A stretch of 64,000 nucleotides of DNA from a virus (lineage: Duplodnaviria > Heunggongvirae > Uroviricota > Caudoviricetes): positions 1 to 64,000 of the IMG/VR virus record IMGVR_UViG_3300017971_000019; one strand, given 5' to 3'. A program made the position numbers and the translations under genes. Positions 4,943 to 62,067 of this stretch are shown one piece after another; position 1 is the stretch's first letter; every line of letters begins with the position of its first letter. Below the pieces are notes generated by a model. It saw nothing but the letters and a program-made list of their open reading frames with translations, had not been told where the DNA came from and did not search any database.

Positions 4943-4968
4943 TTCCCGGATCGTCCGCCGCTTGCACC

Positions 4969-7682: not shown

Positions 7683-7693
7683 AAGGAGGACGT

Positions 7694-8239: not shown

Positions 8240-8264
8240 GATGCCTAGCTGGGAAGAGGTGAAA

Positions 8265-45418: not shown

Positions 45419-45420
45419 CG

Positions 45421-45747
45421 ATGTCTATCATCTACGCGGGCGAGAGGCCCAACGACAGCGGGTGGAACCTTGTTGGAGACCTAGCTCAGGTTGCCGCGAA
45501 GACGCTGCCTGGGATGTTTAAGAAGCCAGAAGTGCAAGAGTTGCCAGGCGCGAAGAACTTCGCGAACCCAGAAGCGATGGTTCCGGCAGTCACACCAGTC
45601 ACACACAATCCTGCGGCTCCGGTTCCACTTGGTGGCGGCATGGGCGGACTTGGGGACTTCGGTGATCTGGGAGACTACAAGATCCCGAGTCTCACGGTCG
45701 CTGACATGATGCTCCCGTACTTCGGCGGCTTCGGACCTCGTTTCTAA
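45421..45747 (+). CDS. putative internal virion protein (108 aa); its N-terminal 30 aa are paralogous to the N-terminus of the next gene
   Basis: MSIIYAGERPNDSGWNLVGDLAQVAAK aligns with MAQIIFTGKRPEDSAWATLVPGLAQAAS. Confidence 0.5.
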   Translation: MSIIYAGERPNDSGWNLVGDLAQVAAKTLPGMFKKPEVQELPGAKNFANPEAMVPAVTPVTHNPAAPVPLGGGMGGLGDFGDLGDYKIPSLTVADMMLPYFGGFGPRF

Positions 45748-45759
45748 GAGGAGTGAGCC

Positions 45760-47586
45760 ATGGCTCAGATCATCTTCACAGGTAAGCGCCCAGAGGATTC
45801 AGCCTGGGCGACTCTCGTTCCAGGGCTCGCTCAGGCTGCGTCTCTCGCATTCGCTGAGAAGAAGCGGCAGGACCAGTTGAAGATCGAGGCCGAGGAGCGA
45901 GAGCGCAAGAGGGAGCGAGAGGACTGGACGTTCGAGACAGAGCAGCAGAGGCGCGAGGAGGAGAAGGAGGACCGCGTCGCTGAGACCCAGTCGAAGACGC
46001 ACGAGATCCAGAAGGCTCTAGCGGAGGAGCAGGCGGAGAGGGACGTTGACGAGGCGTACGAGAGGGCTGGCACTGTTCAAAAAGGGCTTCTGGAGGACTA
46101 CCTGAAGCCGACCGAGCTAAAGATGCCTGGTGCTGTTTCGATGGAGAGAGAGGTCGCTCCGGGCGTGACTCTCGACAGACAGCAGGTAGGAACAGAGGAA
46201 GCGGTTGACATTGGTGACAGCGCCAAGAGCATGGAGGCGCTAAACGCGCTGATGGAGAGTGCTCCAGGGGCGAGGGAGTTCGCGGAAAGGCTCCAGGGCG
46301 ACGTGACGATCCCTGGGGTCGAGAAGTACGGCGTAGAGGATGAGACGTTGGGTAGGGGTGAGCTTGCCGCTCGTGCGTACGACGACAGGCAGAGGGCAGC
46401 AGCCGCGAGAGCGCGTGAGAAGGGCGAGGGCCCGATTGTCTTCCCGGATGACGAGAGTGTGCCCCCGTTCTTCAGGGGCAGGACGTTCAGGCCAGGCGAG
46501 GACGGGTACGAGATGGCCGAAGAGGTCGCGCCAGAGTACGCGAAGAGTCTGTTCGCTTCCAAGAAGGCTGGCTCTCTGAAGCAGGCGTACGACTCTAAGT
46601 CCGGTCGTAAGGTCTTCGTTACGGACTCAGAGATCCAGTCGGGCGGCGGTCGCTACCAGCCTATTTCCGCCGCACCTGACGACGCGCCGGACAAGGAGAA
46701 CAGGTTCCTGCGTGGCGCAGCCTGGGACATCGTTGAGAACGCGAGGGACGAGTGGCTCGCGGGCAATAGGAAGAACATGGACCTGACAGATGCGGAGAGG
46801 AAGAGGTTCCTCGCGTCTTTGCCGGTAGAGATCCTAGGCCCAGCGCAGGGCGTAGCTGACCTCGACCTCGACCCGGCTAAGGCTGGCCGAGGAGTGGAGA
46901 TGCGCTCCGCGATCATCCAGACTGCGAAGATCCTGAATCCAAACTTCACGCAGCACGGGTTCGAATTCAAGCGCGATTGGGCGAAGGGAAAGCCAGCGAC
47001 TGCTCGCCGCGCCGTCAACGACGCTATCGCGGACGTTGGTCGCGCCTTCAAGCTCTCAGAGGAGTTCCGTCGCACCGGGATGCCATGGATCAACAAGGGC
47101 TACGTCTGGTTCCTAGAACAGGTTGGATCTCCAGAGGAGAAGGCTCTCCGCACCAGGCTGAAGACTCTCGCTACCGAGTTCTCGAAGGCGCAGAACAACG
47201 GAATGGCCGCGAAGCAGGAAGAAATCGAGGAGGCGTACAGAAGGTACATGACCTCCGCCACCCCAGAGGAACTGGAGGCCATCCTCAGAGAGGATCTCCA
47301 CTCCACGGTGAACCGCATCGTCACTCTCGAAAACGACTACGAGCGATTCGTTGGCGAGCCCGTACCGACGCCTACCCTCAACAAGCAGACCATCGAGAAG
47401 GCTCGCGAGGCTGGCTACTACGACATCTTCGTGGATGCCGGCGCGGTTCTCACTGAGGGTGGCGGCGGAGGAGCACCTGGGGACGAGCCCATTCCTGAGA
47501 TCGGAGCCGTTGGGCAGACGATCACACGCAACGGAAAGACGTACGTCTGGGATGAAGTGGAGGGTGGATTCACCCCGCAGGAATAG
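45760..47586 (+). CDS. putative internal virion protein (608 aa), charged and coiled-coil-rich, with the shared N-terminal tag
   Basis: GAGGAG ribosome-binding site. ORF track. The N-terminus is paralogous to that of the 45421 gene. Confidence 0.6.
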   Translation: MAQIIFTGKRPEDSAWATLVPGLAQAASLAFAEKKRQDQLKIEAEERERKREREDWTFETEQQRREEEKEDRVAETQSKTHEIQKALAEEQAERDVDEAYERAGTVQKGLLEDYLKPTELKMPGAVSMEREVAPGVTLDRQQVGTEEAVDIGDSAKSMEALNALMESAPGAREFAERLQGDVTIPGVEKYGVEDETLGRGELAARAYDDRQRAAAARAREKGEGPIVFPDDESVPPFFRGRTFRPGEDGYEMAEEVAPEYAKSLFASKKAGSLKQAYDSKSGRKVFVTDSEIQSGGGRYQPISAAPDDAPDKENRFLRGAAWDIVENARDEWLAGNRKNMDLTDAERKRFLASLPVEILGPAQGVADLDLDPAKAGRGVEMRSAIIQTAKILNPNFTQHGFEFKRDWAKGKPATARRAVNDAIADVGRAFKLSEEFRRTGMPWINKGYVWFLEQVGSPEEKALRTRLKTLATEFSKAQNNGMAAKQEEIEEAYRRYMTSATPEELEAILREDLHSTVNRIVTLENDYERFVGEPVPTPTLNKQTIEKAREAGYYDIFVDAGAVLTEGGGGGAPGDEPIPEIGAVGQTITRNGKTYVWDEVEGGFTPQE

Positions 47587-47589: not shown

Positions 47590-50500
47590 ATGGCAAAGCT
47601 ATACCTCGATCCAGAGACAGGCGAAGAAGTCACAGCGAACGAGTTCAGGAGGCGTCGAGCCAGGAGGCAAGCCGCCTCTGAGGGGCAACCTATCGCTGAC
47701 TTCATGTCCCCGACGCGTCAGCTACTTGGGATCCCAGAGCCTGGGACCATGTTCTCTACCGAAGAGCAGAAGGACGTTCCAGAGGGTCATCTGTCTGGGT
47801 ATAGGAAGAGGAAGACTTACCTCGATCCGGCCACCGGAGAAGAGGTTGATGAGATTGAGTTCCGTGCCCGCAAGGCGAAGCGTGAGCGTGAGAAGGAAGA
47901 GCTAGATAAGAACGCAGCGGAGCGGAAGAGGGCCGAGGAGATAGCGGCGAAGGACCGCGAGATTGCGGAGAGGGTCACCCAGGGGATCCCGTTCGAGCCG
48001 CTTCGGAAGCTTGCCGCGTCGAAGCCAGCACGCCTTGCCATGGAGACCGCCACGGGGCTACCCCGCACCATCGGTTTGGACTTCCTCCTTGGCCCAGCCG
48101 AGTCTGACGTTCAGTTGCTGGGCGCCGGCGAGAGGGCCGCGACGAGGGCTGGCCGCAAGCGCGGCAGGGCCATGATGCCGACGGTTGGTGGTGGCGGAGT
48201 TCCTGGCGTCCCGGACATCCCGACCGGACTAGAGGCTGATGAGGACAGGTACGTCACAGATCTCCCGACCGGCGTCAAGGAGCTTGGCGACAGGACATGG
48301 GCGTCCGACCTAACCCAGGAGACCATCGACAAGATCAAGGCGATCCAGCTACCAGGCAGGAACCCGTTCACCGACGAGCCGCTCGCTGAGGGCGAGCAGC
48401 CGTACGCGTCTGTCGGCGGAAGTGTCGGGGTCTCGCCAAGGGTCGCTGAGGCCCTTCGCGATCCGTTCATCTACAACAACGAGGTCGAGTTCTCGCGTAC
48501 CGCCAGGTGGAGGTCCGGGATTGAGGAGGCCATTCGTCCAGCCATGTTCGGCGCTGGGGAGAGCTTCGAGACAGCGAAGGATGTCGCGCTCCCAGCCGCT
48601 GTTGCGTACGGCGCAGTTAGGCGACCATGGCACACGATTCCTGCTATCGCTGGTATCGAGCTTATGTCCATCCTTGGCGAGAAGGGCGCGAGGGCGGCTT
48701 CACAACACCTAGGCGAAGACGAAGAGCGGATGGCCCAGATCGGGCGAGAGATTCCGATGGCCCCTGCCGGCCTGAAGGTCGGCCCAGCATTGACGAAGGC
48801 GGGTCTCAGGGCTACATCTCCCCTACTGGGGAAGGCGAAGACTCGCAAGTGGCTTGCGCGGGGCGCTAGGACCAACAACAGTCGCGAAAGGTCCATTGAC
48901 CTTGAGGTGCAGCGAGTCACCGGGAAGACTCTGCTCCAGACTCTCCGAGACGTTGGGCGTGGCGCTAAGTGGTGGACTCAGGAGAGGACCACCGATGGCC
49001 CGTTCATGGCCATGAGGCGTGAGCTAGGTGCTCGTAAAGATCTGGCTAAGGGCTTCCAAACTCCGTACGCGAGGCGCGGCATCACTCAGGAAACAGCGGA
49101 GAAGCTGAGAGACCTCCAGGATCCGCGCTGGAGGGATAAGGCTGACTGGTCACAGCCTGTTGGGGAGAGGGGCGACTTCCTCGGATGGAGGGCGAATAAG
49201 CAGGGCAAGCTGGAGCCGGTCTACGCGCCGGCATCTCCAGTCAGAACTGATGCCCCGCCTGGCCCAGGCAGGGGTGTCATCTACGACCAGGAAGGCAACG
49301 TCAAGGACACGTATGACCTGGACGCGCAGGGCAAGCCTGTCGGTGCGTCTGGAGGAGTAGACGTTCCCGAAGCCGTTCGTCGCTACGCGCCGATGACCGC
49401 TGGGTACATCGCCCAGGGCATGACATTCTCGAAGTGGCCACTCCCTCTTGGAAGGTTCGCAGCCGGTCGTTTTGCAAACCTCGGTGCCAGAAGGCTTGTC
49501 TCCAGAATGCTGGAGGGTGTGAGGAGGAAGAAGCCCGCCCGCAACGTTGAGGCGTTCGACGCGGAGGCCAACGAGTTCGTGATGGTCCCCGAGGACGCAC
49601 TAATCAACAACCCTGCGAAGTACAAGACCAAGGGTCAGGGTGCGCGAATCCTCAAGGAGAGGGACGCTCTTCGTAAGGCGAGGGAGAAGGAAGCCGATCA
49701 GGCTCGCAAGGCCAAGGAAAAGGCGGACGCTGAGGCGAAGAAGGAGCAGGAGAAGCTCCAGAAGGCCGTAGAGGACGCGATCAAGCAGGCTGAGGCTGAG
49801 CAGCAGTCTCGCCAGGGCATGTCCTCGACGCTCTCCCCGCAGGAGGGCTCCAAGATCATGGAGATCATGGAGCACCAGGTTGCGGTAGAGCGCGTCATGA
49901 AGGAGATGGGCGTTGACCGCGTAGAGGCGGAGAGGATCCTCAAGCAGCGCGGCGATGTTACTGCTCCAGAGACTCCTATCGAGTCCGCGAAGTTCAAGTC
50001 TGGAGATATCACAGAAGCCGATATCTTGAAGGCTGCTCAGGATGGCGCGACCCCGGAACAGCTTCGCGCCATGCGCGAGAAGCTCGCCCAGAAGGGTGAG
50101 CCAACGAAGCCGGCAGAGCCTCCAAAGCCTGAGCCTCCTGCGGAGCCTGTCGCAGAGCCTGCCCCAACGAAGCCGAAGGCTCCCGAGGGTGAAGGCGGAG
50201 CCGAGACCGTTGAGTCTCTTGGTGGGACGGGACATCTCTCGAAGGGCCAGCTTGGTGCCTTCAGGCAGAGAGTGGAGATGGGCGAAGACCCGGTCACCGT
50301 CCTGAAGCAGATCAACGAGTACAGGCGGAAGAAGGGACAGTCGGTTCCAGAGTCGAAGCCTACTGAGCCGGCGAAGGCGCCGCCTGCTGAGCCTCCAGCG
50401 GACACGTCGCTCGACAGGACAAGCGGGACTATCCGCACGCGTCGAAAGAAGCAGGAGCGAGACAGGAATCTCGGTGAGGACGCCCCCGAGGACGCAGCCG

Positions 50501-53500
50501 TGTTTGAGCCCATCGTAAAGGGTCAGGAGGTTGGAGACGGAGTCAGGATCGGTGACACCTACGTAGACGTATCGGGCGAGACTCCACGCACTGTTCGCGT
50601 CGAGGGACAACTAGACACGCGTGGGAAGATCCGCCTTCATCTCGTTGACGCAAAGACGGGAGACTGGGTCTTGGGTGAGCCGACGAACGGGCACAGTTTC
50701 CTGAAGGGGCTTAGAAAGGACATCAAAGACGGCCTGATCGAGAAGCCAGCCGAGAGGCCAACCAAGCCAACCGCTCCGAAGGGCGGGAAGTCCGGTAAGG
50801 CTCAGGAGCCGTTCGACACGACCACGCCTGAGGGTCGCGCAAAGGCGTTCGCTCGCGAAGGTGGTCCTACCGACGCCGAGTGGAACCAGATGGGCGGCAA
50901 CATCGCGAAGCGTGCGTGGCTTGAGTCGCAGGGGAAGACAGGCGAGCCTCGCATGACCGGGCCTACGCCGGAAGGGCTTGAGGGGCCGGCGGGCAAGGCT
51001 CTCTCCGAGACGCAGACGCCTCCGACAGAGAAGCCGTCGAAGGGGAAGGGCAAGAAGAAGAAGGGCAAGCCTCGTCCAGGAGTCATCCGCAAGGGTGACG
51101 TTGTCGAGTTCGCGGACGGGACTCGCGGGATCGTCAAGGGCAAGGGAAGGAGCGGGGGCCTCAAGGTTCAGGTCGGAGAGACGACTCGTCTCGCCACACC
51201 GGACCAGGTGAAGAAGGTCGAAGCGAAGGCTCCGACTCCAGAGGAGCGCCAGGCTGCGCTCGACAAGGTCAAGGAACTCGGTGAAGGCAACAGGGGAATG
51301 CTGGAGCGCGAGTTCTACGAGTCCGGCCCAGAGGCGGCTGTCATTCTGGGCACGGAGAAGATGGGCCTCGAAGAGCCGGTAGTCCGCTCGTTCATCGAAT
51401 CCCTCCCTGAGACGAGGCCCCCAGCCACCCCAGCCGAAGCCGCTGTCGAGATCACGAAGGGCAGCTTCAAGGGCCAGAAGGGTGTCCCAATCGGGGAGGC
51501 CGACGCCAAGGGCGTGACCAACGTCATGCTCGAATCCGGCGAGGTCCAGCCCTTCAAGGCCGGCGAGTTCAAGGTGCTCAGGGGATCCGGGAAGGACGCA
51601 GATATTGCGGCCACCATCAAGAAGGCCGAGGAGGACGCTGGGATCGAGTGGGGAGAGCCCCTAAAGGGCCCTGAGAAGGCCCCAGAGGCTCCAGGAGCGC
51701 CTGTAGAGGGCAAGAAGGCCCCAGAGGCCGGGAAGCCGGCTACGGGCCGTAGGGGGGCTTGGAGCGGCCTTGACGCGGCTGTTCGAGAAGGGGACCAGGC
51801 GAGGGCCAGCAGCATCGCCCGAGGGGCTGTCAAGGACCCCGAGGCCAGCGCCGTGGTCGGCGGGCAGGGTGTCAGGGTCGGGGACGTGATCGAGTCCGGG
51901 CCGCACGCCGGGAAGATGGTTCTGGAGGTTCAGGACGGGGCCGTCGTCCAGATGACCAAGAAGAAGTTCACCGGGGGTGGGGGTCGCTACCAGGTCGGAC
52001 GGGTGACCACCGTCGGGGAACTCACCGCCCGCCGTGCCCGCCCGAACTACCAGGGCTACTACTCGCAGCTTGAGAGGGTGCTGGAGACTCCACACGTTCA
52101 GGAAACTCAGGTTGCCCACGACTGGCTCCGCTTCCTCAAGAAGCGCAAGCGCGGCGTGACTGCCGACGAACTCTACTGGACAGGCCTAGAGGAGTTCCTG
52201 AAGTCGAAGAAGCCGTGGGAGCGAGTAACCAAGGGCAAGCTCCTTCAGTACCTCAAGGACAACAAGGTTGAGTTGTCCGAGTGGAGGCAGGGCGACATCC
52301 ACCAAATCGACTTCAATAGCCCGGCCCAGGTGGACGCGTACGTTCGTATGTGGGAGCGCAGGGCTAGGGAGTCCGGTGTCTACACGGAGCAGGAAGTCCG
52401 CAACATCGGTGCCGCGATGCGTAACGACCCGATGTCTAGGATTGACCAACTCAGGGAGGACATCACGAAGCCTGAGTACGGCGACTACAAGGAACCGGGC
52501 GGAACGAACTACCGCGAGTTCATCGTGACGATCCCGTCGAAGAGTGTCCCGACTCCACTCCGCTATCGCGTCGAGAGCATGGACAGGTCCATTCCCCCGG
52601 AAAAGAAGGCGAGGGTGGACGAGCTAAACGAGGAGAAGGGCGCACTGGAAGCCGCCCTGGTCACAGAGTTCGGCGCAGTCTTCCGAGTGAGGAGGGGCGA
52701 GCCGAGAGTCAAGCCGCGCCACCTCAAGGATAAGGATCGAATCCTAGAGATCAACAAGGAGATCCAGAAGATCCGAGAAGAGGGCGGGGAACTCTGGACC
52801 GTCGAGTCTTACTGGGCAGACAACGGAGTGCAGGCGAAGTCTCCAGGGACAGGAGGGACTTACAAGTCCAAAGCGGAGGCAAAGGCGGCAGCGGAGAAAC
52901 TAGCCAAGGAGAAGCCAACCCACGGCAGGCTTCACGCCAAGTGGGACGCACCACACTTCTCGCATCTCAACGCACAAGGGGGCATCCTCTACCACATCCG
53001 CATGACGGACAGGATCGACCCGGCAACCGGAGAAAAGATCCTCTTCGCTGAGGAGTTCCAGTCCGATGCCGCATGGGACGCCAAGAAGAAGGGAGTAAGG
53101 AAGCCAAACAAGGCCTGGCAGAAGGATCTGGAGAGGTTCAACGAGCTTAGCGATAGGAATCGAGAGATCAGGAACAAGCGCGACACCTCTTCCCTGACTA
53201 AGGACGAGAAGCGTGCGCTCAAGGCGGAGTACGAGCGAAACTCCGAAGAGATGCAGCGCATCAACAACAAGTACGGCGAACACCCAGGCTCTGGCGTACG
53301 TGGCTTCATGGGTCGGAAGGACGTGCCTACCGAGATGCCGTACATCGAGTCCACCAACAAGTGGCTCGACCTGGCCACGAAGCGATTCATCAAGATGGCC
53401 GTAGAGGAAGGCTACGATCAGGTCCGCTTTACTTCCGGCTCGATGCAGACTCGTCGCTACGACCTCTCTCAGAGGGTGGATGAGGTCCGTTGGGATCCCG

Positions 53501-56500
53501 CAGAGAAGAGGCTAGAGGGATACAAGGACGGCGAGAACATCCTCAACGAGTACGATGTCCCTGCTGAGAAGCTCGCGGACTACATCGGTGAGGAACCGGC
53601 TGCGCGGCTCAGGAGGGCGGCGCAGAACTGGAAGGAGCCCGACCCGCTTGGTGGATGGGGGATCGAGCAGGCAAGGCGACCAGGCGAGTTCTACGTCATC
53701 GACCCGAATGGCCAGTACGTCTACACCAGGGAGGGTAAGAGGGACCTCTTCTACGGTAAGGATGAGGCCAGGAACTACATCGAGGAATCCATTCGTGAGT
53801 CTGGCGACACAGTGAGCCAGATCCCGGCAATCTCTGGACAGGATCTCTCGATGGGCTCCACTGGCCTCGCGAAGCTCTACGACGTGATGATTCCGCAGTC
53901 CTTCAACCGCGTCCTCAAGCCGTTCAGGACTCAGGGTGAGACCATCTACCGCCTAGAGGGAGACCGCCTGACGAAGACGGTCGAGGGCGCGAAGGGACCG
54001 AAGCTCGAAGAAGGGCAGATGGGGGAGAATTCGTACACCAAGAGGTACGAGGTCAGGGAGCACCCGGATCAGGCTCTGGCAAACCAGGGCGCAATGGCCA
54101 TCTATGATCTGGGCACCGAGACGTGGGCGAGGTCCACTGACCCACGTATGCCTATCGATCCTGATCTTATGGCGATGAGAAAGCGCCAGGGGGTAACGGA
54201 CACCACTGGAGCTAGGGCCAACTACTTCAAGAGCGCAGCCGACGCACGTCGCGTAGCGTCTGAGATGAACCTCGACTACGCTCACGACAGGATGGCTGAT
54301 GGCGTTCTTAGCCGCTTCAAGTACAACGTCGTTGATGCGAAGACAGGCAAGATCGTCAGGACGGTCAATGAGCCCTGGCAGACGGTGGACGCTGTGCGGG
54401 AACTCGAAGGCAAGAGTGGCCGCGAGTACGTTGTAGAGCCTGCCGGCGAAACCGTACACACCATCAGGATCCCGGACGAACTCAAGCGCCAGGTCGAGAA
54501 GGAAGGGTTCCCTCAGTACAAGATCGGCAAGGAAGACCTCGTAGAGACCCCGATCACGACGGAAGACGTGCGCATGGCTCTGCCAGAGGCGCTGCGTCCA
54601 CTCCTCAAGAGGGCCACGAGGACGGAGACCAGGCCGGCGGGGAAGGGGAAGGGAGAGGTTCGCGCAGACGCGAAGATGGGACTCCGTGCCGGCGACTGGT
54701 ACATCGACACTCCTCACGGTGGAAGGATCATCATCAAGCAGAACGGGTTCATCAGGATCGAGAACCCGGAGCAGTCGCTGGTCGGATACTCGCCGGAAGT
54801 CATCGCAGACGTGAAGGCCGGCAAGCGCGGCGCACTGGGCCGCATGGAGACGCCAGGCCAGGGTCCGCTGGTTCCGAAGTACCGCCGCAAGTACGGCATC
54901 GACCGCGACATGCAGATGCGCATCCTCAACGCGGGAGTCATCCCGCACGAGATGGGCCACATCTTCATCGACTACTTCGCGAGCCCCAGGGAGAAGGCAC
55001 GCATCGAATCCTGGTTCAGGGAGGAGATGGAGGCGAAGGGCCTAGAGAAGTATGACGAACTGTTCGCTGAGGGCTTCAGGGAGTGGTTCGAGTCCTACCG
55101 CTGGAAGAAGAAGCCTCGCAACGCTGTCGAGAGGGTGTACAAGGCGATCTACGAGTTCGTTGCGAACGTCTACGACACCTTCCGCCCGACAATCGAAGGC
55201 CAGTACAGGAAGGTCGCCCAGGGCAAGCCGTTCAAGCGTGGTCGCCACCAGGATGGATGGGTAGGAAGGACTGCTAAGGAGGCGTACCAGATCGCGGCTC
55301 GCGAGGTCGGAGACAGCGAAGCCAACTTCATGAAGTGGTTCAAGAAGTCTGTCGCCAACACCCAGTGGGACCAGATGAGCAAGGGCCAGATGGGCGGTCT
55401 CAAGCTTGGCAAGCACCCAGAGGGCTACCCGCACTACGGCCACGACAAGATGCCGTTGGAGCTATACCACGCGACCATCGCGAAGGCAGACTTCGACGCG
55501 TTCAAGCCTGGTAGCAGGCCAAGGTACGTGGACCCGGCCAACCCAGACGCCGACTACGGACGTGGCGTGGACGGCATGGGCATCTGGTTCGCAGAGGATG
55601 CCGAGTTCGCGAACTCCAAGCTCCGGTTCGACTGGATGGCTGAGGACATGAGGCGAGGCGGGCCTCCGCCGGACCACAACGCCATCCGCAACCCGGAGGG
55701 CCCCATTCCCGAAGGGGGAAGGATCATTCCCGCTTATCTCTCCCTCCAGAAGCCGCTCTTTGTACGCGAGAGGCGCGATCTCGACTACGAGGTAGCGAAG
55801 AAGTGGGCGCAGATCGAAGCCAAGGATCCCGCAAAGAGTGCGAAGGCCAAGAAGAGGAGCAAGAAGGCGAACAAGGCTCTCCTGAAGGTCGATAGGGACG
55901 TGAGGAACTACGTCAACGAGCTTGCCGACAAGTACGCCGTTCCGAAGGGTGGTGGAATCACGTTCCAGGACAGGCTGCTTATCGCCTACGACAGGATCAA
56001 CGCTGTCGAGCGTGCCAAGCTCATGGAGTACCGCAGGGCGGGTGAAAAGGCTAGGCTGGAAGCCGCTATCGCTGAGGCAGAGATGACCGGCAACCCGGAG
56101 GCGTACCTACAGACCCTCAGGCGCGGAGACCCGAAGGACATCGCGAGGGCCAAGAAGGCTCTCCAGTCCGAGGGCTACGACGGGTTCCTCGTGGGCGACG
56201 ACATGGGCTTCGGTCGCGCATGGGTGGTATTCGAGGGCGAGCAGATCAAGTCCTCCAGGGCGAACGTCGGGACGTACGACCCGAAGAACCCTGAGTACCG
56301 CCACATGATCGAGCCTGAGCGTGCGAAGAAGCTCAAGACCAGGAAGCACCTTCCAACAAGGCGGGAGTTCGCAGAGGCAGTCCAGAACACCAAGGGCGCG
56401 GCGATCACAGAGGATGGGCTCATCATGGAGCTTCAGCGTTGGCAGAAGCCAGACCAGGCTGGAGCACTCTCCATCAGGACCGGGGTCTTCTACCTACCTA

Positions 56501-59500
56501 AGGGTGACCGCAAGGCCAGCGCTTACAGGATCACTCCGAACTCGAAGCACACCGGGGCTGGTATCGCCTACGGCGGAACCGATAAGGTTGAGGGGCAGAC
56601 CCTCATCCGCAAGCCTCTGTTCGTGCGCGGAGCTACCGGAGGCAGGGCCCCAGAGGAAGCCTTCAAGATCATCAAGGGAGCCCCAGCGTTTTCGAAGCTC
56701 GAAGACCAGCTTTGGTCGATCCACATGAGCGACTACTCGATGCGCGAGTGGCCGGACATGATCCACGCGAAGGCTCGTGCAGAGAAGGCGGCGAAGGCCT
56801 ACTCCGAGGCTCGTGCAGAGCACGGCCAGGACTTCACGAAGTACGAGGACATCTACAACGAGTACCACGACGCCCAGAGGCTCTTGGCAACGACCCGCGA
56901 CAAGATCCAGACCAGTGAGATCGAGAGGGTCCTACAGGACTTCGGCGGCGACCCGTCCATGGCTCGCGACATTCTGGCCAACTCCAGGGAGGGCAACCAG
57001 CTTCGCTACGCGATCCAGGAGAACATCATCGCCCACGTCGTGAGGGACGAGGGCTTCGACGCTGTGGTCGGCTTCACGAAGGGCAAGAACGGAGCGAAGT
57101 TCTCCGAGGTCTTCGACGTTCGCGAGACCACGTACCCGGACACCGGGTATGTCCAATCTGACATCCACCCGTCATTCATCCCCGAGAGCGTCGGTCGCTA
57201 CCAGGTCGGGCAGAAGAAGGGCGACACGAGCACCCCAGAGTTCAAGAAGTGGTTCAGGAAGTCCACCATCAAGGACGGGAACAAGCCGAGGCCGGTGTAC
57301 CACGGTACTGGCAAGGAAGGATTCTTCGAGTTCGAGTGGCCAGAGCACGACCTCGGGTTCCACGTTGGGTCCAGGGCGCAGGCAGTCGAGGCCGGTGTCA
57401 CGAATAGGATCAGCAGGCTCAGCGAAGAGATGAGGGCTCTCCGGGCGGAGGCGCTTCCGTACGCACAAGCCGGGAAGGAAGTGCCGAAGGAGATCAAGGA
57501 CAAGATCGCCAAGAACGAGAAGGAGGCGAAGACGAGCGGGCGGATTCCTGGACAGGAGGGCTTCGAGGAACCACGCATGATCGAACTGTACGCTCGCGCA
57601 GAGAACCCGCTCCGTCTCCATGACGTTGGAGACAAGTGGGGCTACTACGCGTACGACTACCTACCAATCGGAAAGACCGTACAGGGCGGCAAGCCTGGGT
57701 TTACTCGCGAAGAGGTCCAGATGCTGAGGGATCTACCTAGGAGGTTCAGGCCGGCGGAGACAGTCAAGCTGATCAAGAGCAAGGGCTACGACAGCATCGT
57801 GTACAAGAACGAGCACGAGGGCAGGGTTTACGACAGAGCGACAGGAGAGCTAAAGTCCCGCGATGACTCCTACATCCTCTTCGACAAGAACCAGGTGAAG
57901 CAGACGAGCAACGTCACATGGGGAGAGGGCGGAGACTTCCGCTACCAGGTCGGGCCGAAGGGTGCTGGCAGCAACCTGAAGAGGTCACTGGAGAAGCTGG
58001 AGTCCACCCGCAAGGCCCGCAAGCCGATCAAGGGTGTGATGGACAGGAAGGCAGACCTCTCCCCTAGGTTGGTGAAGAAGATGGACAGGAAGGCTACTCC
58101 GAGGTTCTCGGTCGGAGAGGTCTCCGATGTCCTGCCGGAAGCGCTCAGGGGTATGCCCGAGATCTACAGGGACCAGTTGACGGACGCCCTCACCTCCAAG
58201 AGGTTCGAGGTCAAGATGACCGAGGACACGAAGAGTGACTGGAAGGGCACGATCTACCAGTACAGGCTTAGTCCGGCGCGTCCAAAGCACGCGAGGGTGG
58301 AGCCTCCGAGGTGGGAGGGCGAAGAGCCTAACGCCTGGTACGACCCAGAGATCGCGGAACTCAAGAGTACATCAGAGGGCGGGTTCCGACAGATCGGGTA
58401 CGACCTGAAGCCTGGCTGGACACGCAGCGTGGAAGACCTCACCTCTGGTGACGGTACGACCTACTTCCGTGGCATGAGCGCAGAGGAGTGGGTGGAGATC
58501 CAGCGCACAGGCAAGATCAGGTCACAGGGTGCCTACAACCTCGGTGACAAGCAAGTCGGCAAGACCTACTACTCGGTGAGCCCAGGACAGGCGGAGTCCT
58601 ACGCCGCCGGCTTCCAGCCGTGGCAGAGGACCCCAGCGCACGGGAAGAACGCGTACATCGTGGAGATCAGGAACCCGAAGAGGAAGGGCACCCTAGAGCA
58701 GGGTGATGAGCGTGGGGTTCCGGGCGAGATCAACGCCTCAGAGATCGTCAACGTGTACGAAGGCGTGCCGTATTACTTCAAGGACGGCAAGGTCGAGTAC
58801 ACGCCAGATACCGTCAGGGGGCCAGGTGGAGAGGGTTGGGTGAGCACCCACGTCGAGGGCTCTCGCTACTCCCCAAGCACACACGTTGCATGGCGCAAGA
58901 TCGATGGCGAGAAGGTAGCCAGGCTCCGCGCAGAGGCGGAGACGGTGACCCTCACGGACGGCGCGATGGCTGTCGAGCCAGCGGCCAGGTACGCGCTCTC
59001 AGAGGCTGGACGCAAGAGGCTCCGTGAGAAGCAGATGGAAGAGGCCAGGAAGATCGCTGGCGAGGGTGCCCTGGTCGATGAGGCGACGATGGAGAAGTAC
59101 TTCCGCGACGAGGCCTCCATCGCCCGCGAGGTCCACGACGACTTCTCCCGTCTCGGCTACAAGGAGAGCTTCGCTGACCATCTCAGGGCCATCAAGACGA
59201 ACGCCGACGAGTACTACATGAGGAGCCTCGACTTCACCACGATGTGCAGGAAGAGGTACGTCCTCGGCGCAACCATCGACGCCATCCAGCAGAAGCTTGG
59301 CCGTCCTCTCGACGCCAAGGACATCATGAGGGTGGGAGCCCAGATGAGGCTCCACGGCATTGAGACCGCCTGCGGTCCATGCTACGTAGAGTCGAAGCGT
59401 CTCCAGAACGCTGCCATCATGGAGCAGTTGAAGACCGGCTGGTACAGGCCAATGCCGAAGATCGACCCGAAGACCGGCAAGAAGATGCGCGATGACAACG

Positions 59501-62067
59501 GGAAGATCATCAAGGTCAAGACCTGGATTCCACCGATCCCGAAGAAGCTCCACGACAAGCTCCTCACCTCCGATGGCATCGCTGAGATCGCTGCGAACTA
59601 CCCACAGGAGCGCATCAAGATGGGCTACCTGTACGGGGACAGGAAGGTGAAGGCCCCAGAGGTGCGCGTCTCCTACAAGGGAGAGATCCTCAGCAAGGTG
59701 GACAAGGAGGGCGGGCTCACTGACGGAATGGTAGCCAAGATGAACAAGCGTTCCGGCCTCAGGTGGCAGTCCTGGTCGGACTTCGAGGTTCCGCACATCA
59801 TCGACGCCATGCAGGCAATCGCGGACATGCACCTACGCGGGCTCAAGGGCCACGCCTACACGAAGGTCCCCGAGTTCGTTGAGGTGCTCGCGCCTACCGG
59901 CCTGGCAATCAACATGAGCATGATCCCGAAGGACATCGGGATCAGGAACGGAAAGCTCTGGTTCAACGATGCCGAGTCCTTCCCGTTCGACTTCGGGCTC
60001 AGGATGAGGAAGAAGTACAAGAACGTGGGCTTCGAGACCATCGGCGTGAACGACGCGCAGATCAAGATGGCCCTGGCCGATCCTCGCATCGACTACGTGA
60101 TCCCGTACCACCAGTCCGGCCTCAACAGGAACTACATGAAGATGGTGGGCATGGGCAAGTGGCAGGACTACACGGGTGAGCAGAACTTCACCGTGCGCGG
60201 GACCACCAAGCAGTTGAGCACTGGCAAGTGGCAGGGCAAGGCCTCCAGCAAGAAGGTTCTCTGGGACGAGTACAAGGGCGACCTGAACCTCCTCGACAAG
60301 CTCGCGAAGGAGCGCGGCATCGATCCTCCGTTTGTGAGGATGAGGCACTGGAAGGGATACGAGAAGCTTCTGAACGACCGCCGCAGCTTCATCGAGAATG
60401 GCAAGGGCTACATCAACCAGGACGTGGTGAAGCCAGAGTTCGATATGCGTGCGATCAAGAGGATCATGCGCGAGTACACCCCACCAGACATCAAGCCTGC
60501 CGGCGTGGTCGTGGACGAGTTCGTGAAGGGCGAGATCCCAGCGGAGCCGAGGCAGAGGTACTCCCTTGGCCTACCGAAGAAGACGGAGGGCGTGACTAGG
60601 GGAGGCAGGACCGTCACCCCGAGGAACAAGCCTTCCCAGCCGGCTAGGAGGATCATGGAGCACATGGCTCCTAACCTCACCGGGAAGACGATCCTCGACT
60701 ACGGGGCGGGGTACGGGGTTGACCTCAAGCACTACGAGGGTAGCGGCATCTTCAAGGGCGTCCAGGGCTACGACCCGAACCACATGCAAACGAAGCCTCG
60801 CAAGGCAGACATCGTGACGAACACCTTCGTGGCCAACGTGCTGGAGCCCGTTGACCGCCATGCTATGCTTCGCTCCGCATACAAGCACGCGAACGAGGCA
60901 CTCATCGTGAGTGTGCGTGCTGACAAGATCCCCGGAACGCCGCACCTGGATGGGGTGATCACCAAGAAGGACACGTTCCAGAAGTCCTACAAGAAGGGAG
61001 AGCTTGTGAAGGAACTGGGAGAACTGTTCGGCAAGGAGAACGTCGAGGAGCTTCGCTACGGCGTCTCTGGGGCGCAGATGGCCATCGTCACGAAGCCGAA
61101 GGGGAAGCTGAAGGGCGAAGATCAGCCCAGGTTCTCGATCACGGACCCGGTCCTCGTCGCAGGCGGATCCGCAGGGCGCACCTCCATCCCAACCGCGAAG
61201 GTCACCGAGCCAGCATTCACGATCAAGGCGACCCCGAAGGAGCCGATCAGGTTCACGAGGGGTGACAAGGTGTACAGGCTGTCCGAGCGTGGAGTGGCCC
61301 GCCTCATGGGCGTCTCCGACAGCTACAAGCTGCCCGAGAACAAGGCGCTGGCTCGCACGGTTCTGGGGAACGGCGTCCCACCGCCGCTCGCAAGGGCCGT
61401 CGTGCTGCCGCTCCTCAAGGGCATCAAGAAGCCGACAGCCGTGACCCTCTTCTCTGGCGGGAGCCTGGTAGAGGAAGGGCTGAAGGATAAGGTCCGCTTC
61501 CTGGGCGGACACGAGATCAGCGCGGACATCGCCGGGGTGGCTCGTTCGAACGGACACAACACCCGCATCGTGGACGTGACGAAGGCTGACTTCTCGGACT
61601 TCGCAGGGGCTGACTGGCTCCACGCCTCCCCGGTGTGCAAGAACTTCTCGGCGGCGAAGAACCAGTCCGGTGAGGTTCCTCTGGACATCCGCTCCGCAGA
61701 GGCTGTGGTCAGGGCAATCGATCAGGTGGGGCCAACAGTGGTCACCATCGAGAACGTGAAGGGCTACCGTGGCTCGGAGGCCCTACAGTTGATCATCGAG
61801 AAGCTCAAGAAGGAGGGCTACAACGTGGACGCCGCCGTATACGACGCGGCTGACTACGGAACCCCTCAGCACCGCCAGAGGCTGCTCGTGAGGGCCATCA
61901 AGGGCAAGCTTCTTCCGCCTCCTCCGATGAAGCAGTCGCACGTCTCCTGGTGGGACGCTGTGAAGGATCTGAAGCACCCGCTCGATCCGAAGGGCCTGGC
62001 GGACTGGCAGAAGCGTAGGCTGGCTCCCCTGGAGCACATGATCGTGGGGGTGGGCGATGCCCCTTAG
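47590..62067 (+). CDS. giant multidomain 'polyvalent' virion protein (4825 aa) with several identified domains
   Basis: Uninterrupted ORF of 14,478 nt with coding-like GC at third codon positions. Its start follows the stop of the upstream gene after a 3-nt gap. Identified elements: an N-terminal tandem 23-aa repeat; a K/E/A/P-rich linker; an HEMGH zincin motif at nt 54946-54960; a possible ADP-ribosyltransferase motif set; a repeated GYD module; a class-I SAM methyltransferase at about nt 60640-60990; and a C-terminal C5-cytosine DNA methyltransferase at about nt 61430-61930 with motifs FSGGS, PVCKNFS, ENV and QHRQR. Confidence 0.85.
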   Translation: MAKLYLDPETGEEVTANEFRRRRARRQAASEGQPIADFMSPTRQLLGIPEPGTMFSTEEQKDVPEGHLSGYRKRKTYLDPATGEEVDEIEFRARKAKREREKEELDKNAAERKRAEEIAAKDREIAERVTQGIPFEPLRKLAASKPARLAMETATGLPRTIGLDFLLGPAESDVQLLGAGERAATRAGRKRGRAMMPTVGGGGVPGVPDIPTGLEADEDRYVTDLPTGVKELGDRTWASDLTQETIDKIKAIQLPGRNPFTDEPLAEGEQPYASVGGSVGVSPRVAEALRDPFIYNNEVEFSRTARWRSGIEEAIRPAMFGAGESFETAKDVALPAAVAYGAVRRPWHTIPAIAGIELMSILGEKGARAASQHLGEDEERMAQIGREIPMAPAGLKVGPALTKAGLRATSPLLGKAKTRKWLARGARTNNSRERSIDLEVQRVTGKTLLQTLRDVGRGAKWWTQERTTDGPFMAMRRELGARKDLAKGFQTPYARRGITQETAEKLRDLQDPRWRDKADWSQPVGERGDFLGWRANKQGKLEPVYAPASPVRTDAPPGPGRGVIYDQEGNVKDTYDLDAQGKPVGASGGVDVPEAVRRYAPMTAGYIAQGMTFSKWPLPLGRFAAGRFANLGARRLVSRMLEGVRRKKPARNVEAFDAEANEFVMVPEDALINNPAKYKTKGQGARILKERDALRKAREKEADQARKAKEKADAEAKKEQEKLQKAVEDAIKQAEAEQQSRQGMSSTLSPQEGSKIMEIMEHQVAVERVMKEMGVDRVEAERILKQRGDVTAPETPIESAKFKSGDITEADILKAAQDGATPEQLRAMREKLAQKGEPTKPAEPPKPEPPAEPVAEPAPTKPKAPEGEGGAETVESLGGTGHLSKGQLGAFRQRVEMGEDPVTVLKQINEYRRKKGQSVPESKPTEPAKAPPAEPPADTSLDRTSGTIRTRRKKQERDRNLGEDAPEDAAVFEPIVKGQEVGDGVRIGDTYVDVSGETPRTVRVEGQLDTRGKIRLHLVDAKTGDWVLGEPTNGHSFLKGLRKDIKDGLIEKPAERPTKPTAPKGGKSGKAQEPFDTTTPEGRAKAFAREGGPTDAEWNQMGGNIAKRAWLESQGKTGEPRMTGPTPEGLEGPAGKALSETQTPPTEKPSKGKGKKKKGKPRPGVIRKGDVVEFADGTRGIVKGKGRSGGLKVQVGETTRLATPDQVKKVEAKAPTPEERQAALDKVKELGEGNRGMLEREFYESGPEAAVILGTEKMGLEEPVVRSFIESLPETRPPATPAEAAVEITKGSFKGQKGVPIGEADAKGVTNVMLESGEVQPFKAGEFKVLRGSGKDADIAATIKKAEEDAGIEWGEPLKGPEKAPEAPGAPVEGKKAPEAGKPATGRRGAWSGLDAAVREGDQARASSIARGAVKDPEASAVVGGQGVRVGDVIESGPHAGKMVLEVQDGAVVQMTKKKFTGGGGRYQVGRVTTVGELTARRARPNYQGYYSQLERVLETPHVQETQVAHDWLRFLKKRKRGVTADELYWTGLEEFLKSKKPWERVTKGKLLQYLKDNKVELSEWRQGDIHQIDFNSPAQVDAYVRMWERRARESGVYTEQEVRNIGAAMRNDPMSRIDQLREDITKPEYGDYKEPGGTNYREFIVTIPSKSVPTPLRYRVESMDRSIPPEKKARVDELNEEKGALEAALVTEFGAVFRVRRGEPRVKPRHLKDKDRILEINKEIQKIREEGGELWTVESYWADNGVQAKSPGTGGTYKSKAEAKAAAEKLAKEKPTHGRLHAKWDAPHFSHLNAQGGILYHIRMTDRIDPATGEKILFAEEFQSDAAWDAKKKGVRKPNKAWQKDLERFNELSDRNREIRNKRDTSSLTKDEKRALKAEYERNSEEMQRINNKYGEHPGSGVRGFMGRKDVPTEMPYIESTNKWLDLATKRFIKMAVEEGYDQVRFTSGSMQTRRYDLSQRVDEVRWDPAEKRLEGYKDGENILNEYDVPAEKLADYIGEEPAARLRRAAQNWKEPDPLGGWGIEQARRPGEFYVIDPNGQYVYTREGKRDLFYGKDEARNYIEESIRESGDTVSQIPAISGQDLSMGSTGLAKLYDVMIPQSFNRVLKPFRTQGETIYRLEGDRLTKTVEGAKGPKLEEGQMGENSYTKRYEVREHPDQALANQGAMAIYDLGTETWARSTDPRMPIDPDLMAMRKRQGVTDTTGARANYFKSAADARRVASEMNLDYAHDRMADGVLSRFKYNVVDAKTGKIVRTVNEPWQTVDAVRELEGKSGREYVVEPAGETVHTIRIPDELKRQVEKEGFPQYKIGKEDLVETPITTEDVRMALPEALRPLLKRATRTETRPAGKGKGEVRADAKMGLRAGDWYIDTPHGGRIIIKQNGFIRIENPEQSLVGYSPEVIADVKAGKRGALGRMETPGQGPLVPKYRRKYGIDRDMQMRILNAGVIPHEMGHIFIDYFASPREKARIESWFREEMEAKGLEKYDELFAEGFREWFESYRWKKKPRNAVERVYKAIYEFVANVYDTFRPTIEGQYRKVAQGKPFKRGRHQDGWVGRTAKEAYQIAAREVGDSEANFMKWFKKSVANTQWDQMSKGQMGGLKLGKHPEGYPHYGHDKMPLELYHATIAKADFDAFKPGSRPRYVDPANPDADYGRGVDGMGIWFAEDAEFANSKLRFDWMAEDMRRGGPPPDHNAIRNPEGPIPEGGRIIPAYLSLQKPLFVRERRDLDYEVAKKWAQIEAKDPAKSAKAKKRSKKANKALLKVDRDVRNYVNELADKYAVPKGGGITFQDRLLIAYDRINAVERAKLMEYRRAGEKARLEAAIAEAEMTGNPEAYLQTLRRGDPKDIARAKKALQSEGYDGFLVGDDMGFGRAWVVFEGEQIKSSRANVGTYDPKNPEYRHMIEPERAKKLKTRKHLPTRREFAEAVQNTKGAAITEDGLIMELQRWQKPDQAGALSIRTGVFYLPKGDRKASAYRITPNSKHTGAGIAYGGTDKVEGQTLIRKPLFVRGATGGRAPEEAFKIIKGAPAFSKLEDQLWSIHMSDYSMREWPDMIHAKARAEKAAKAYSEARAEHGQDFTKYEDIYNEYHDAQRLLATTRDKIQTSEIERVLQDFGGDPSMARDILANSREGNQLRYAIQENIIAHVVRDEGFDAVVGFTKGKNGAKFSEVFDVRETTYPDTGYVQSDIHPSFIPESVGRYQVGQKKGDTSTPEFKKWFRKSTIKDGNKPRPVYHGTGKEGFFEFEWPEHDLGFHVGSRAQAVEAGVTNRISRLSEEMRALRAEALPYAQAGKEVPKEIKDKIAKNEKEAKTSGRIPGQEGFEEPRMIELYARAENPLRLHDVGDKWGYYAYDYLPIGKTVQGGKPGFTREEVQMLRDLPRRFRPAETVKLIKSKGYDSIVYKNEHEGRVYDRATGELKSRDDSYILFDKNQVKQTSNVTWGEGGDFRYQVGPKGAGSNLKRSLEKLESTRKARKPIKGVMDRKADLSPRLVKKMDRKATPRFSVGEVSDVLPEALRGMPEIYRDQLTDALTSKRFEVKMTEDTKSDWKGTIYQYRLSPARPKHARVEPPRWEGEEPNAWYDPEIAELKSTSEGGFRQIGYDLKPGWTRSVEDLTSGDGTTYFRGMSAEEWVEIQRTGKIRSQGAYNLGDKQVGKTYYSVSPGQAESYAAGFQPWQRTPAHGKNAYIVEIRNPKRKGTLEQGDERGVPGEINASEIVNVYEGVPYYFKDGKVEYTPDTVRGPGGEGWVSTHVEGSRYSPSTHVAWRKIDGEKVARLRAEAETVTLTDGAMAVEPAARYALSEAGRKRLREKQMEEARKIAGEGALVDEATMEKYFRDEASIAREVHDDFSRLGYKESFADHLRAIKTNADEYYMRSLDFTTMCRKRYVLGATIDAIQQKLGRPLDAKDIMRVGAQMRLHGIETACGPCYVESKRLQNAAIMEQLKTGWYRPMPKIDPKTGKKMRDDNGKIIKVKTWIPPIPKKLHDKLLTSDGIAEIAANYPQERIKMGYLYGDRKVKAPEVRVSYKGEILSKVDKEGGLTDGMVAKMNKRSGLRWQSWSDFEVPHIIDAMQAIADMHLRGLKGHAYTKVPEFVEVLAPTGLAINMSMIPKDIGIRNGKLWFNDAESFPFDFGLRMRKKYKNVGFETIGVNDAQIKMALADPRIDYVIPYHQSGLNRNYMKMVGMGKWQDYTGEQNFTVRGTTKQLSTGKWQGKASSKKVLWDEYKGDLNLLDKLAKERGIDPPFVRMRHWKGYEKLLNDRRSFIENGKGYINQDVVKPEFDMRAIKRIMREYTPPDIKPAGVVVDEFVKGEIPAEPRQRYSLGLPKKTEGVTRGGRTVTPRNKPSQPARRIMEHMAPNLTGKTILDYGAGYGVDLKHYEGSGIFKGVQGYDPNHMQTKPRKADIVTNTFVANVLEPVDRHAMLRSAYKHANEALIVSVRADKIPGTPHLDGVITKKDTFQKSYKKGELVKELGELFGKENVEELRYGVSGAQMAIVTKPKGKLKGEDQPRFSITDPVLVAGGSAGRTSIPTAKVTEPAFTIKATPKEPIRFTRGDKVYRLSERGVARLMGVSDSYKLPENKALARTVLGNGVPPPLARAVVLPLLKGIKKPTAVTLFSGGSLVEEGLKDKVRFLGGHEISADIAGVARSNGHNTRIVDVTKADFSDFAGADWLHASPVCKNFSAAKNQSGEVPLDIRSAEAVVRAIDQVGPTVVTIENVKGYRGSEALQLIIEKLKKEGYNVDAAVYDAADYGTPQHRQRLLVRAIKGKLLPPPPMKQSHVSWWDAVKDLKHPLDPKGLADWQKRRLAPLEHMIVGVGDAP

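Follow-up and report, generated by a model that had tools for sequence, protein, structure and literature searches.

The framework for very large phage proteins that join unrelated domains in one chain came from Iyer, Burroughs, Anand, de Souza and Aravind (2017, J Bacteriol, PMC5512222), who described the polyvalent proteins, with lengths of up to 12,242 residues in a plasmid protein, and predicted that they are packaged and then cut by zincins into functional units. In that description, the methyltransferases were almost always a DarB-type adenine methyltransferase together with a helicase, C5-cytosine methyltransferases were not discussed, and the ART-PolyVal and LPD38 partners were described in delivered proteins only. 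A survey published in 2022 (PMC9503650) added ADP-ribosyltransferases (ARTs) of the Alt/VIP2 type fused to MuF. As for packaging, gp69 of the Bcep22-like podovirus JC1, a protein of 4515 residues encoded at the end of the virion module by 22% of the genome, was identified by mass spectrometry from 51 unique peptides when purified virions were analysed (PMC9144972). The delivery of an enzyme toolbox with the phage DNA is a predicted and almost untested strategy, and the present work deals with a gene that bears on it. This gene encodes a protein of 4825 amino acids (aa) and lies near the end of a stretch of 64,000 nucleotides (nt), here called the window, that corresponds to positions 1 to 64,000 of the IMG/VR record IMGVR_UViG_3300017971_000019, a virus of the Caudoviricetes. 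The phage is uncultured and podovirus-like, and the product of the gene is probably a polyvalent protein of the phage type, packaged and ejected as has been proposed for such proteins.

As judged from sequence, the giant protein meets those features of phage-type polyvalent proteins that lend themselves to testing in silico. At least two disparate activities are predicted in it (two ART-PolyVal domains, a C5-cytosine and a small S-adenosylmethionine (SAM) methyltransferase, and an HExxH...E motif); it contains a hub domain, ART-PolyVal (PF18760), with a whole-protein score of 57.5 bits against a cutoff of 31.2; and the gene stands in a phage context, with portal, terminase and structural genes on the same strand. 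Its relatives carry ART-PolyVal, PBECR5, MuF_C, GNAT, LPD3, LPD38 and glucosaminidase domains. An earlier note on this window, made by reading the sequence, had proposed a polyvalent mosaic, and this is borne out by the unrelated enzyme domains, PF18760 included. The protein is thus of a known kind, while what is new here are two domains, denoted X1 and X2, and a short motif repeated at the domain joints.

Reading frame and enzyme domains of the giant protein

The open reading frame (ORF) starts with ATG, runs for 4825 codons and has its sole stop at the end, in agreement with the uninterrupted frame claimed earlier, while stops number 132 and 138 in the two other forward frames. The start codon is found 3 nt past the stop of the upstream 608-aa gene, with AGGA 7 nt upstream of it, and in 16 of the 16 blocks of 900 nt across the ORF the G+C contents of the three codon positions followed the order GC3 > GC1 > GC2. 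The same protein was recovered from four independent metagenome contigs (JGI and ENA, 18-92 kb), with 0-9 substitutions each: two of the copies are 4825 aa long, with 3 and 8 substitutions, and the other two, called from the internal Met54, cover aa 54-4825 at 100% and 99.8% identity. Because of these intact copies and of the coding signature, a frameshift or an assembly chimera, the concern raised in the earlier note, is very unlikely. Over its initial 3.6 kb (47590-51190; four of the five blocks of 900 nt in the N-terminal arm) the ORF has a GC3 of 0.68-0.73, compared with 0.76-0.88 downstream, a step that could reflect either another origin of the arm or a composition effect of its low-complexity sequence. 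A megablast search of the ORF against the GenBank phages gave no match.

Table 1. Coordinates of the giant gene, of its domains and boundary motifs, and of neighbouring genes in the window
Feature	Residues	Position (nt)	Strand	Basis or remark
Whole gene, 4825-aa polyvalent protein (predicted)		47590..62067	+	One ORF, coding signature throughout, four near-identical contig copies
N-terminal region	1-1465	47590..51984	+	Translation, composition; low-complexity, K/E/A/P/G-rich
Domain X1	1489-2112	52054..53925	+	31 homologues
Zincin-like domain	~2330-2560	54577..55269	+	Invariant HExxH...E
ART-PolyVal domain 1	2620-2894	55447..56271	+	PF18760; family profile independent E-value (i-E) 2.5e-15
Degenerate module, ends in GFDAVV	3043-3177	56716..57120	+	Marginal ART-PolyVal profile match, i-E 0.019
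ART-PolyVal domain 2	3228-3444	57271..57921	+	PF18760; family profile i-E 5e-16
R-S-E-like domain	3531-3797	58180..58980	+	Homologues, invariant motif residues
Domain X2	3825-4324	59062..60561	+	Conserved, predicted barrel-like enzyme domain
Small class-I SAM methyltransferase	4338-4500	60601..61089	+	TIGR04096 N-terminal part, weak Methyltransf_23
Circularly permuted C5-cytosine methyltransferase	4518-4812	61141..62025	+	PF00145 in two stretches, order swapped
Boundary motif RYQVG	1466-1470	51985..51999	+	Just before X1; 14-nt identity with two other sites
Boundary motif QYKIG	2309-2313	54514..54528	+	Just before zincin-like domain
Boundary motif RYQVG	3203-3207	57196..57210	+	Before ART-PolyVal 2
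Boundary motif RYQVG	3451-3455	57940..57954	+	After ART-PolyVal 2
Boundary motif RFSVG	3505-3509	58102..58116	+	Before R-S-E-like domain
Boundary motif RYSLG	4323-4327	60556..60570	+	Between X2 and SAM methyltransferase
Boundary motif RFSIT	4514-4518	61129..61143	+	Between SAM methyltransferase and C5 methyltransferase
Large terminase (TerL)		11311-12966	+	Library scan
Portal-like protein		12939-15143	+	Library scan
Virion structural protein (phrog_1645), 629 aa		24489-26378	+	phrog_1645 at 2.6e-77
Adaptor-like gene		34641..35717	+	PF24175 SU10_adaptor, 4e-8, 34.4 bits against a cutoff of 27
Three genes upstream of the giant gene (245, 108 and 608 aa)		44681..47586	+	No PHROG or Pfam match

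The two ART-PolyVal domains, whose family is of the H-Y-D, Tox-ART-HYD2-like type, each contain a large insert, which in copy 1 amounts to ~100 aa. Their motifs are YHAT, GIWFA and VVFEGEQIK in copy 1 and VYHGT, GFHVG and ILFDKNQVK in copy 2; accordingly, the catalytic His is kept in both (YHAT, YHGT), and the acidic position is occupied by E in the former and by D in the latter. The module between them yielded no Pfam match. Three modules of the G(Y/F)D type had been read here in the earlier note: two of these are the C-terminal motif of significant ART-PolyVal matches, but the middle one is degenerate. Since a self-BLAST of the giant protein found no internal repeats at E <= 0.01, the ART copies are, by their sequences, either old duplicates or independent acquisitions.

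The zincin-like domain is centered on HEMGH (aa 2453-2457, nt 54946-54960), within HEMGHIF (aa 2453-2459), and E2490 (nt 55057-55059) is the candidate third ligand. In an alignment of 11 sequences with 15-29% identity, only H2453, E2454, H2457 and E2490 are invariant, and HExxH...E is the signature by which gluzincins are predicted. The HEMGHIF motif had been taken for a zincin before; the motif is there and is conserved throughout the 11 homologues, but no peptidase family model recognizes it.

A further domain, called R-S-E-like, contains the motifs FRGMS, YYSVSP and DERG. Its homologues are four database proteins, P0033 and the 2772-aa 'large polyvalent protein' of phage Pag-Yong1, and FRG, Y-S-x-(S/D) and ERG are invariant in five sequences. 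It gave no match to Pfam or PDB profiles, nor to any ART profile or structure, and its hhalign comparison with the ART-PolyVal profile produced a local E of 0.013 and a probability of 3%. Of the ADP-ribosyltransferase-like R/S-x-S/E triad seen in the earlier note, the motifs and their conservation were confirmed, but not the match to an ART profile or structure; from the motifs, it is plausible that the domain is an ADP-ribosyltransferase. Its reading as RelA/SpoT, found in the annotation of Synechococcus phage MinM2, was discarded, as Pfam finds no such domain in the Pag-Yong1 record, which has equal length and the same match statistics. As a separate observation, P0188 and P0189, two stand-alone homologues of this domain, both begin with MGDF(V/Q)GHPFRGNQ(Y/W)T. 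The FRGNQ motif is one that we take to occur at the junctions of phage head-associated effectors; a literature search returned nothing relevant.

The chain closes with two methyltransferase cassettes, both of which had been recognized in the earlier note. The first matches TIGR04096 with 8e-23 over the Rossmann part (profile positions 7-144 of 478), its 80.9 bits falling below the cutoff of 150; it is, from this match, a Rossmann methyltransferase akin to TIGR04096 and not a member of it, and the cassette is C-terminal in six related giants. The second matches PF00145 with 4e-28 and 99.2 bits (cutoff 22), as well as PADLOC MTase_II and the HaeIII/HhaI structures in PDB, whereas TIGR00675 remained below its cutoff (79.9 against 100.65). 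All the catalytic motifs of C5 methyltransferases are present, namely FSGGS, SPVC (with the catalytic C4683), IENV, QHRQR and GNGVPP. Thus, the identification stands, but with an order that had not been foreseen: instead of the canonical succession of motifs I-VIII, target-recognition domain and motifs IX-X, motifs IX-X are found at aa 4552-4600 (profile 269-314) and precede motifs I-VIII, at aa 4620-4774 (profile 6-165), so that the target-recognition region, which is variable, contains the break. This permuted cassette of ~295 aa is also internal in the giants P0044 (58% identity) and P0103 (48%), while P0088 has the canonical order. Circularly permuted or split 5-methylcytosine methyltransferases are represented by M.BssHII and M.AquI; in these enzymes, as in the window, motifs IX-X come before I-VIII and the break is in the target-recognition region. 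Unlike them, the enzyme of the window is a ~295-aa cassette embedded in giant phage proteins.

Domains X1 and X2, the N-terminal arm and the boundary motif

The most widespread part of the giant protein is X2. A phmmer search with this domain against 1.84 billion cluster representatives retrieved 2084 proteins at E <= 1e-3, 687 of them at E <= 1e-30, which sets the size of the family at no less than 2084 clusters (at 50% identity), mostly of phage proteins with 2-5 thousand residues. The best 148 of these matches have a median length of 3031 aa (range 553-4844), and X2 is the sole region common to all of them. Because the 14 X2 giants scanned with Pfam carry ART-PolyVal (six), C5 methyltransferase (two), PBECR5 (two), MuF_C and GNAT domains, the X2 giants are, on their predicted domains, a large family of polyvalent proteins. 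In spite of this, X2 has no match in Pfam, PHROG, NCBIfam or the PDB sequences and, by tblastn, it is absent from 50,697 GenBank phage records and 72,556 plasmids. A set of 185,579 species genomes contained it in only 15 contigs, 14 of which are labelled as metagenome-assembled genomes or uncultured isolates, and in IMG/VR it occurs in at least 110 contigs. The search for X2 loci depended on the query, as an alignment gave loci and a single sequence gave none. No homologues of the window genes were found in 95 X2-bearing loci, nor in the X1/X2 context loci, and for this reason the X2 and X1 giants can be said to sit in very different phages.

The motifs of X2 are SLDFTTMCxKR, CGxCYVESxR, RWQSWSDFE, HAYTK, INMSLIPKG and IPYHxSG. 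Its three cysteines, C3886 (nt 59245-59247), C3928 (nt 59371-59373) and C3931 (nt 59380-59382), are kept in 146-148 of 149 proteins; in the same set, S4063, D4064, D4072, Y4090, K4092, N4108, S4110 and P4172 are strictly invariant, and more than 20 polar residues are strictly or nearly so. The AlphaFold2 model (pLDDT 77.5, pTM 0.77) shows alternating beta and alpha elements, and Foldseek found nothing significant with it. From the model and the conserved residues, it was concluded that X2 is a putative metal-binding, barrel-like enzyme. The CxxxCxxC that follows strand beta-1 in radical SAM enzymes is lacking, the spacing in X2 being C-x41-C-x2-C; that X2 is a divergent, radical-SAM-like iron-sulfur metallo-enzyme is a possible but rather doubtful reading. 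The notion that X2 might be a polymerase, like the virion RNA polymerase (vRNAP) of N4, was dropped in view of the predicted beta/alpha barrel fold.

X1 is characterized by the motifs PGGTNYRE, LFxEExQSD and YDxVxFTSG..RYDLS, with an insert at about aa 1655-1785, and matches no Pfam LPD or other family. Its 31 homologues include many proteins of about 700 aa that stand alone, as well as polyvalent proteins with ART-PolyVal, LPD3 or glucosaminidase. When aa 1491-4337 were compared by tblastn with the 50,697 GenBank phage records, only four were hit: three cyanophage records of identical length at the R-S-E-like domain and one Caudoviricetes sp. at X1. A relevant clue was derived from two stand-alone X1 proteins of ~700-755 aa, P0002 and P0019, which are encoded within T7-like structural modules (contigs L099 and L102) in which the genes for portal (PF12236), scaffold (PF05396) and capsid are followed, in this order, by one of 204 aa, a nozzle-like one of 664 aa, two small ones and that of X1. 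In T7, the internal core or ejection proteins occupy the third slot past the nozzle gene. This internal-core position is that of P0002 and P0019, and not of the window gene itself. X1 has no sequence or fold match to T7 gp15 or gp16; from its position, it may be an unrecognised core or ejection-protein domain of marine or freshwater T7-like phages. In yet another contig (L100, from Logan ERR12037365), positions 2864-10247 hold six ART-PolyVal genes of 198-243 aa with one 259-aa gene interposed, followed by a 165-aa gene and then by a stand-alone X1 gene. By its gene content, this looks like an 'unfused' polyvalent locus, the counterpart of the fusion found in the window.

The arm that precedes X1 contains several short beta-like modules and no cysteines at all. 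Residues 3-27 and 75-99 are an N-terminal repeat read from the translation (15 of 25 residues identical), a K/E/A-rich stretch lies at about aa 690-745, and Pro-rich linkers are found at about aa 835-870 and 920-940. The arm has no family match and no homologue among 148 related giants; within it, only aa 1079-1187 has a match, in P0033.

The domains are separated by a short recurrent motif. The pattern [RQ][YF][QSK][VIL]G occurs at 6 sites against 0.08 expected, a number that none of 2000 shuffles equalled, and R[YF][QS][VIL] occurs 6 times against 0.32 expected; all the sites (Table 1) are at domain borders that had been set independently by homology. In other members of the X2 family, (Q/K)(Y/F)S-x-(R/K) is found within ~30 residues past X2 in 90 of 145 proteins, and a matrix built from this post-X2 site detected 156 further sites elsewhere in those proteins, compared to 57 in shuffles (2.7x). 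In P0048, GFPRFSVA is placed just before the zincin-like domain, where the window has GFPQYKIG. On this distribution, the boundary motif may mark processing sites, in which case it provides concrete candidates for the cleavage by zincins that has been predicted. At three sites (51985-51998, 57196-57209 and 57940-57953) RYQVG is encoded by the same 14-mer, CGCTACCAGGTCGG, for which 0.03 occurrences are expected in the window. A meaning of CGCTACCAGGTCGG at the DNA level was not retained, as the peptide motif together with codon bias accounts for most, though not all, of the repetition (P ~0.01 for identical codons); its copies could be recombination joints for cassette exchange.

The protein contains only four Cys in 4825 aa, and all of them are at conserved sites, three in X2 and the fourth being the catalytic C4683. 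It appears that dispensable cysteines have been purged, which is consistent with a protein that would be stored and translocated unfolded. A bolder proposal, tentative and rather doubtful, is that X2 is a virion-delivered metallo-enzyme, the 'engine' of a very large family of giant injected proteins of uncultured phages, for which the boundary junctions would constitute a cleavage code; if this were true, the targets of X2 during entry would be DNA, nucleotides or the cell envelope.

Proposed delivery and alternative explanations

The giant gene closes a long plus-strand block with the genes for terminase and portal, one for a virion structural protein and one for an adaptor of the SU10 type, as the earlier note had placed it, at the 3' end of a structural operon, and is translationally coupled to the gene upstream. 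From this position, together with the domains described above, we infer packaging, ejection, processing, methylation of the incoming DNA and ADP-ribosylation in the host. Briefly, the giant protein would be made late, alongside the structural proteins, and the capsid would take it up as one of its internal or ejection proteins. It would then enter the host by way of the short tail, in an unfolded state and either before the DNA or with it, a route that its near-total lack of Cys would fit. The R-[YF]-[QS]-[VIL]-G motifs would probably be the cut sites that yield separate enzymes, the cutter being either a protease of the head or the zincin-like domain of the chain itself. Once released, the methyltransferases would modify the incoming genome and blunt restriction, the ARTs would modify host proteins, as T4 Alt does, and X2 would perform a metal-dependent reaction. 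The virion and ejection part of this proposal is supported by the X1 homologues, because they occupy the internal-core slot of T7-like modules, and a precedent for packaging is provided by the 4515-aa giant of JC1, because it has the same genomic position and was found in virions.

Several observations weigh against this interpretation. Neither a MuF nor a portal-binding nor a known internal-core domain was detected in the giant protein itself, and packaging, ejection and cleavage are proposed from position and precedent. The three genes immediately upstream have no detectable homology in PHROG or Pfam. For the zincin-like domain, neither the Pfam peptidase families nor the PDB profiles gave a match. 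In ART-PolyVal, the Tyr of the profile is replaced by W in copy 1 and by H in copy 2, because of which both copies may be variant or inactive, this column being weakly conserved in the home-made profile. The boundary pattern was defined post hoc, and the closest relatives hold 0-2 sites each. Finally, the window is possibly part of a 92-kb contig, and the gene set seen is that of the window's part.

The DNA methyltransferases of phages commonly work on DNA that is being replicated in the cell that makes them, and this favors a different view, in which the giant protein is a cytoplasmic polyprotein that is synthesized late or all through infection, is never packaged, methylates progeny DNA ahead of its packaging and modifies host proteins, the fusion serving only for co-expression. 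The lack of a recognised capsid-targeting or MuF domain would fit with it, as would the fact that the C5 and SAM methyltransferase cassettes are self-contained and mobile between proteins. This view is nonetheless considered unlikely: the gene stands at the end of the structural block, to which translational coupling ties it, the X1 homologues stand in an internal-core gene position, the ART-PolyVal and LPD38 partners have been described only in delivered proteins (PMC5512222), and the positional analogue in JC1 is found in virions. In addition, Cys depletion and a disordered arm of 1465 aa would be left with no rationale.

The synteny of X1 with internal-core genes, which argues against a cytoplasmic protein, could equally be invoked for a structural role, in which the giant would serve as internal core, scaffold or ejection conduit of a tail that lacks a tape measure, in the manner of T7 gp15/gp16, and its enzyme domains would be degenerate passengers, hardly active if at all. 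The very long low-complexity arm, the replaced Tyr in both ART-PolyVal copies, the degenerate middle module and the lack of a tape-measure candidate among the genes scanned all point in that direction. However, the C5 methyltransferase keeps FSGG, PVC, ENV, QHRQR and GNGVPP, HExxH...E is invariant, and X2 retains more than 20 near-invariant polar residues across 149 proteins, a pattern of conservation that indicates selection for catalysis. A purely structural role appears, then, quite improbable, although the two roles are not exclusive. As for an artefact, be it an assembly chimera or genes fused by sequencing errors, the unusual size, the heterogeneous mosaic and the GC3 step from ~0.70 to ~0.80 after the first 3.6 kb might have suggested it, yet it deserves hardly any credence in view of four contigs from two data sources with the same frame and 0-9 substitutions, a continuous coding signature (132 and 138 stops in the other frames) and more than 140 related proteins of 2-4.8 thousand residues. 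Delivery of a packaged polyvalent protein is, in consequence, the explanation that we favor.

With regard to the neighbouring genes, the adaptor-like gene indicates, by its PF24175 match, a putative podovirus-type tail. The protein encoded at 24489-26378 is ~34% identical to the 'virion structural protein' of T4-like cyanomyoviruses (S-RIM8, S-WAM2; 167 records), a kinship that is odd for a podovirus-like phage. The genes that immediately precede the giant one had been called three internal virion proteins in the earlier note; they are indeed adjacent to it, but the name is positional only and finds no homology behind it, and PDB sequence searches with the two large upstream proteins were uninformative. 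No gene resembling a tape measure was seen among the genes scanned, only part of the window ORFs having been scanned. A tblastn search of the portal against the GenBank phages was empty, as was the megablast of the giant ORF, and the phage is for this reason placed, by sequence, far from any isolated one.

The giant gene of three viral contigs with X2 has directly before it an ORF of 484-492 aa (L001 6639-8117, L003 3387-4841 and L007 3435-4913), and the 608-aa ORF of the window (45760-47586) occupies the matching slot. In all four, the N-terminus is short and hydrophobic and leads into a helical stretch with many charges, with no significant sequence similarity between the 608-aa ORF and the other three; the ORF directly before the giant gene may be a conserved partner gene. 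Elsewhere in the window, the last ~45 aa of an 858-aa protein (41823-44399) are weakly similar to (1,3-1,4)-beta-glucanases (E 0.005), so that this protein may form a tail fibre or spike whose tip binds or cleaves glycans. Positions 1-6000 show negative GC and AT skew, with the longer ORFs mostly on the minus strand, as would be expected of an early or regulatory module transcribed divergently.

Comparison with known systems

The match from an isolated phage is that of the Planktothrix phage Pag-Yong1 (UMO75972.1, 2772 aa, 65-kb genome), ~35% identical over the R-S-E-like domain; this record and those of identical length are the only matches of this kind, and the protein carries LPD38 and a weak ART-PolyVal. 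It shares one domain only with the giant, as tblastn gave no match to X1, X2 or the methyltransferases.

The comparison with T7 gp14-gp15-gp16 concerns gene order: the stand-alone X1 proteins (~700-755 aa) lie in the third slot after the nozzle, and the giant gene ends a podovirus-like block. The window protein differs from gp15 and gp16 in that it has three to six times their size and includes enzymes, and there is no match in sequence or fold. If the reading of X1 is right, this domain would tie polyvalent proteins to the slot where T7-like podoviruses have their internal-core (ejection) genes. A second group of giant proteins that are packaged and ejected by podoviruses is that of the N4-like vRNAPs, such as the vRNAP of Roseovarius Plymouth podovirus 1, with its ART and zincin (PMC5512222). 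In these as in the window protein, ART-PolyVal and a zincin-like domain accompany a conserved enzyme at the center, a predicted one in the case of the window protein, but no RNA polymerase module was found in the latter, whose central conserved domain is X2, with a predicted barrel-like fold.

JC1 gp69 and the DarB-like giants resemble the window protein in their size (~4.5-4.8 thousand residues), in being encoded by the last large gene of the virion module, in taking up ~22% of the sequence and in a GC content of ~60% or higher. For both, protection of the incoming DNA is presumed, the JC1 protein being proven as virion-associated. No sequence similarity to the Bcep22-like giants was found by megablast or tblastn. 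The likeness to DarB of phage P1 that had been suggested in the earlier note did not hold, since the whole protein gave no match in Pfam, NCBIfam, PADLOC or PDB to any member of the DarB triad (EcoKI/TaqI-like N6-adenine methyltransferase, SNF2 helicase and LPD36). In contrast to DarB and JC1, the window protein has neither a helicase nor an N6-adenine methyltransferase and has ARTs, X1, X2 and a C5 methyltransferase. Similarly, its description as exceptionally large and possibly undescribed was overstated, given the proteins of 12,242 aa (PMC5512222) and 4515 aa (PMC9144972) and an X2 family that reaches 4844 aa.

With the polyvalent proteins of Iyer and coworkers, the window protein shares unrelated domains in one chain, ART-PolyVal, a zincin-like HExxH, DNA methyltransferases and the portal-terminase neighbourhood. 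In the described set, the combination of an N6-adenine methyltransferase with SNF2 and LPD36 prevails, unlike in the window protein, with its permuted C5 enzyme and a small SAM methyltransferase of the Dnd-associated type, its X1 and X2 domains that match no Pfam LPD, and its visible candidate processing sites. The window thus adds to the DarB-type adenine methyltransferase plus helicase of the described cases a permuted C5-cytosine methyltransferase cassette that would also be delivered, and X2, an enzyme-like domain of 500 aa that defines thousands of giant phage proteins and yet is absent from Pfam, PHROGs, solved structures and the isolated phages searched. Both methyltransferases and X2 could yield new DNA-modifying reagents.

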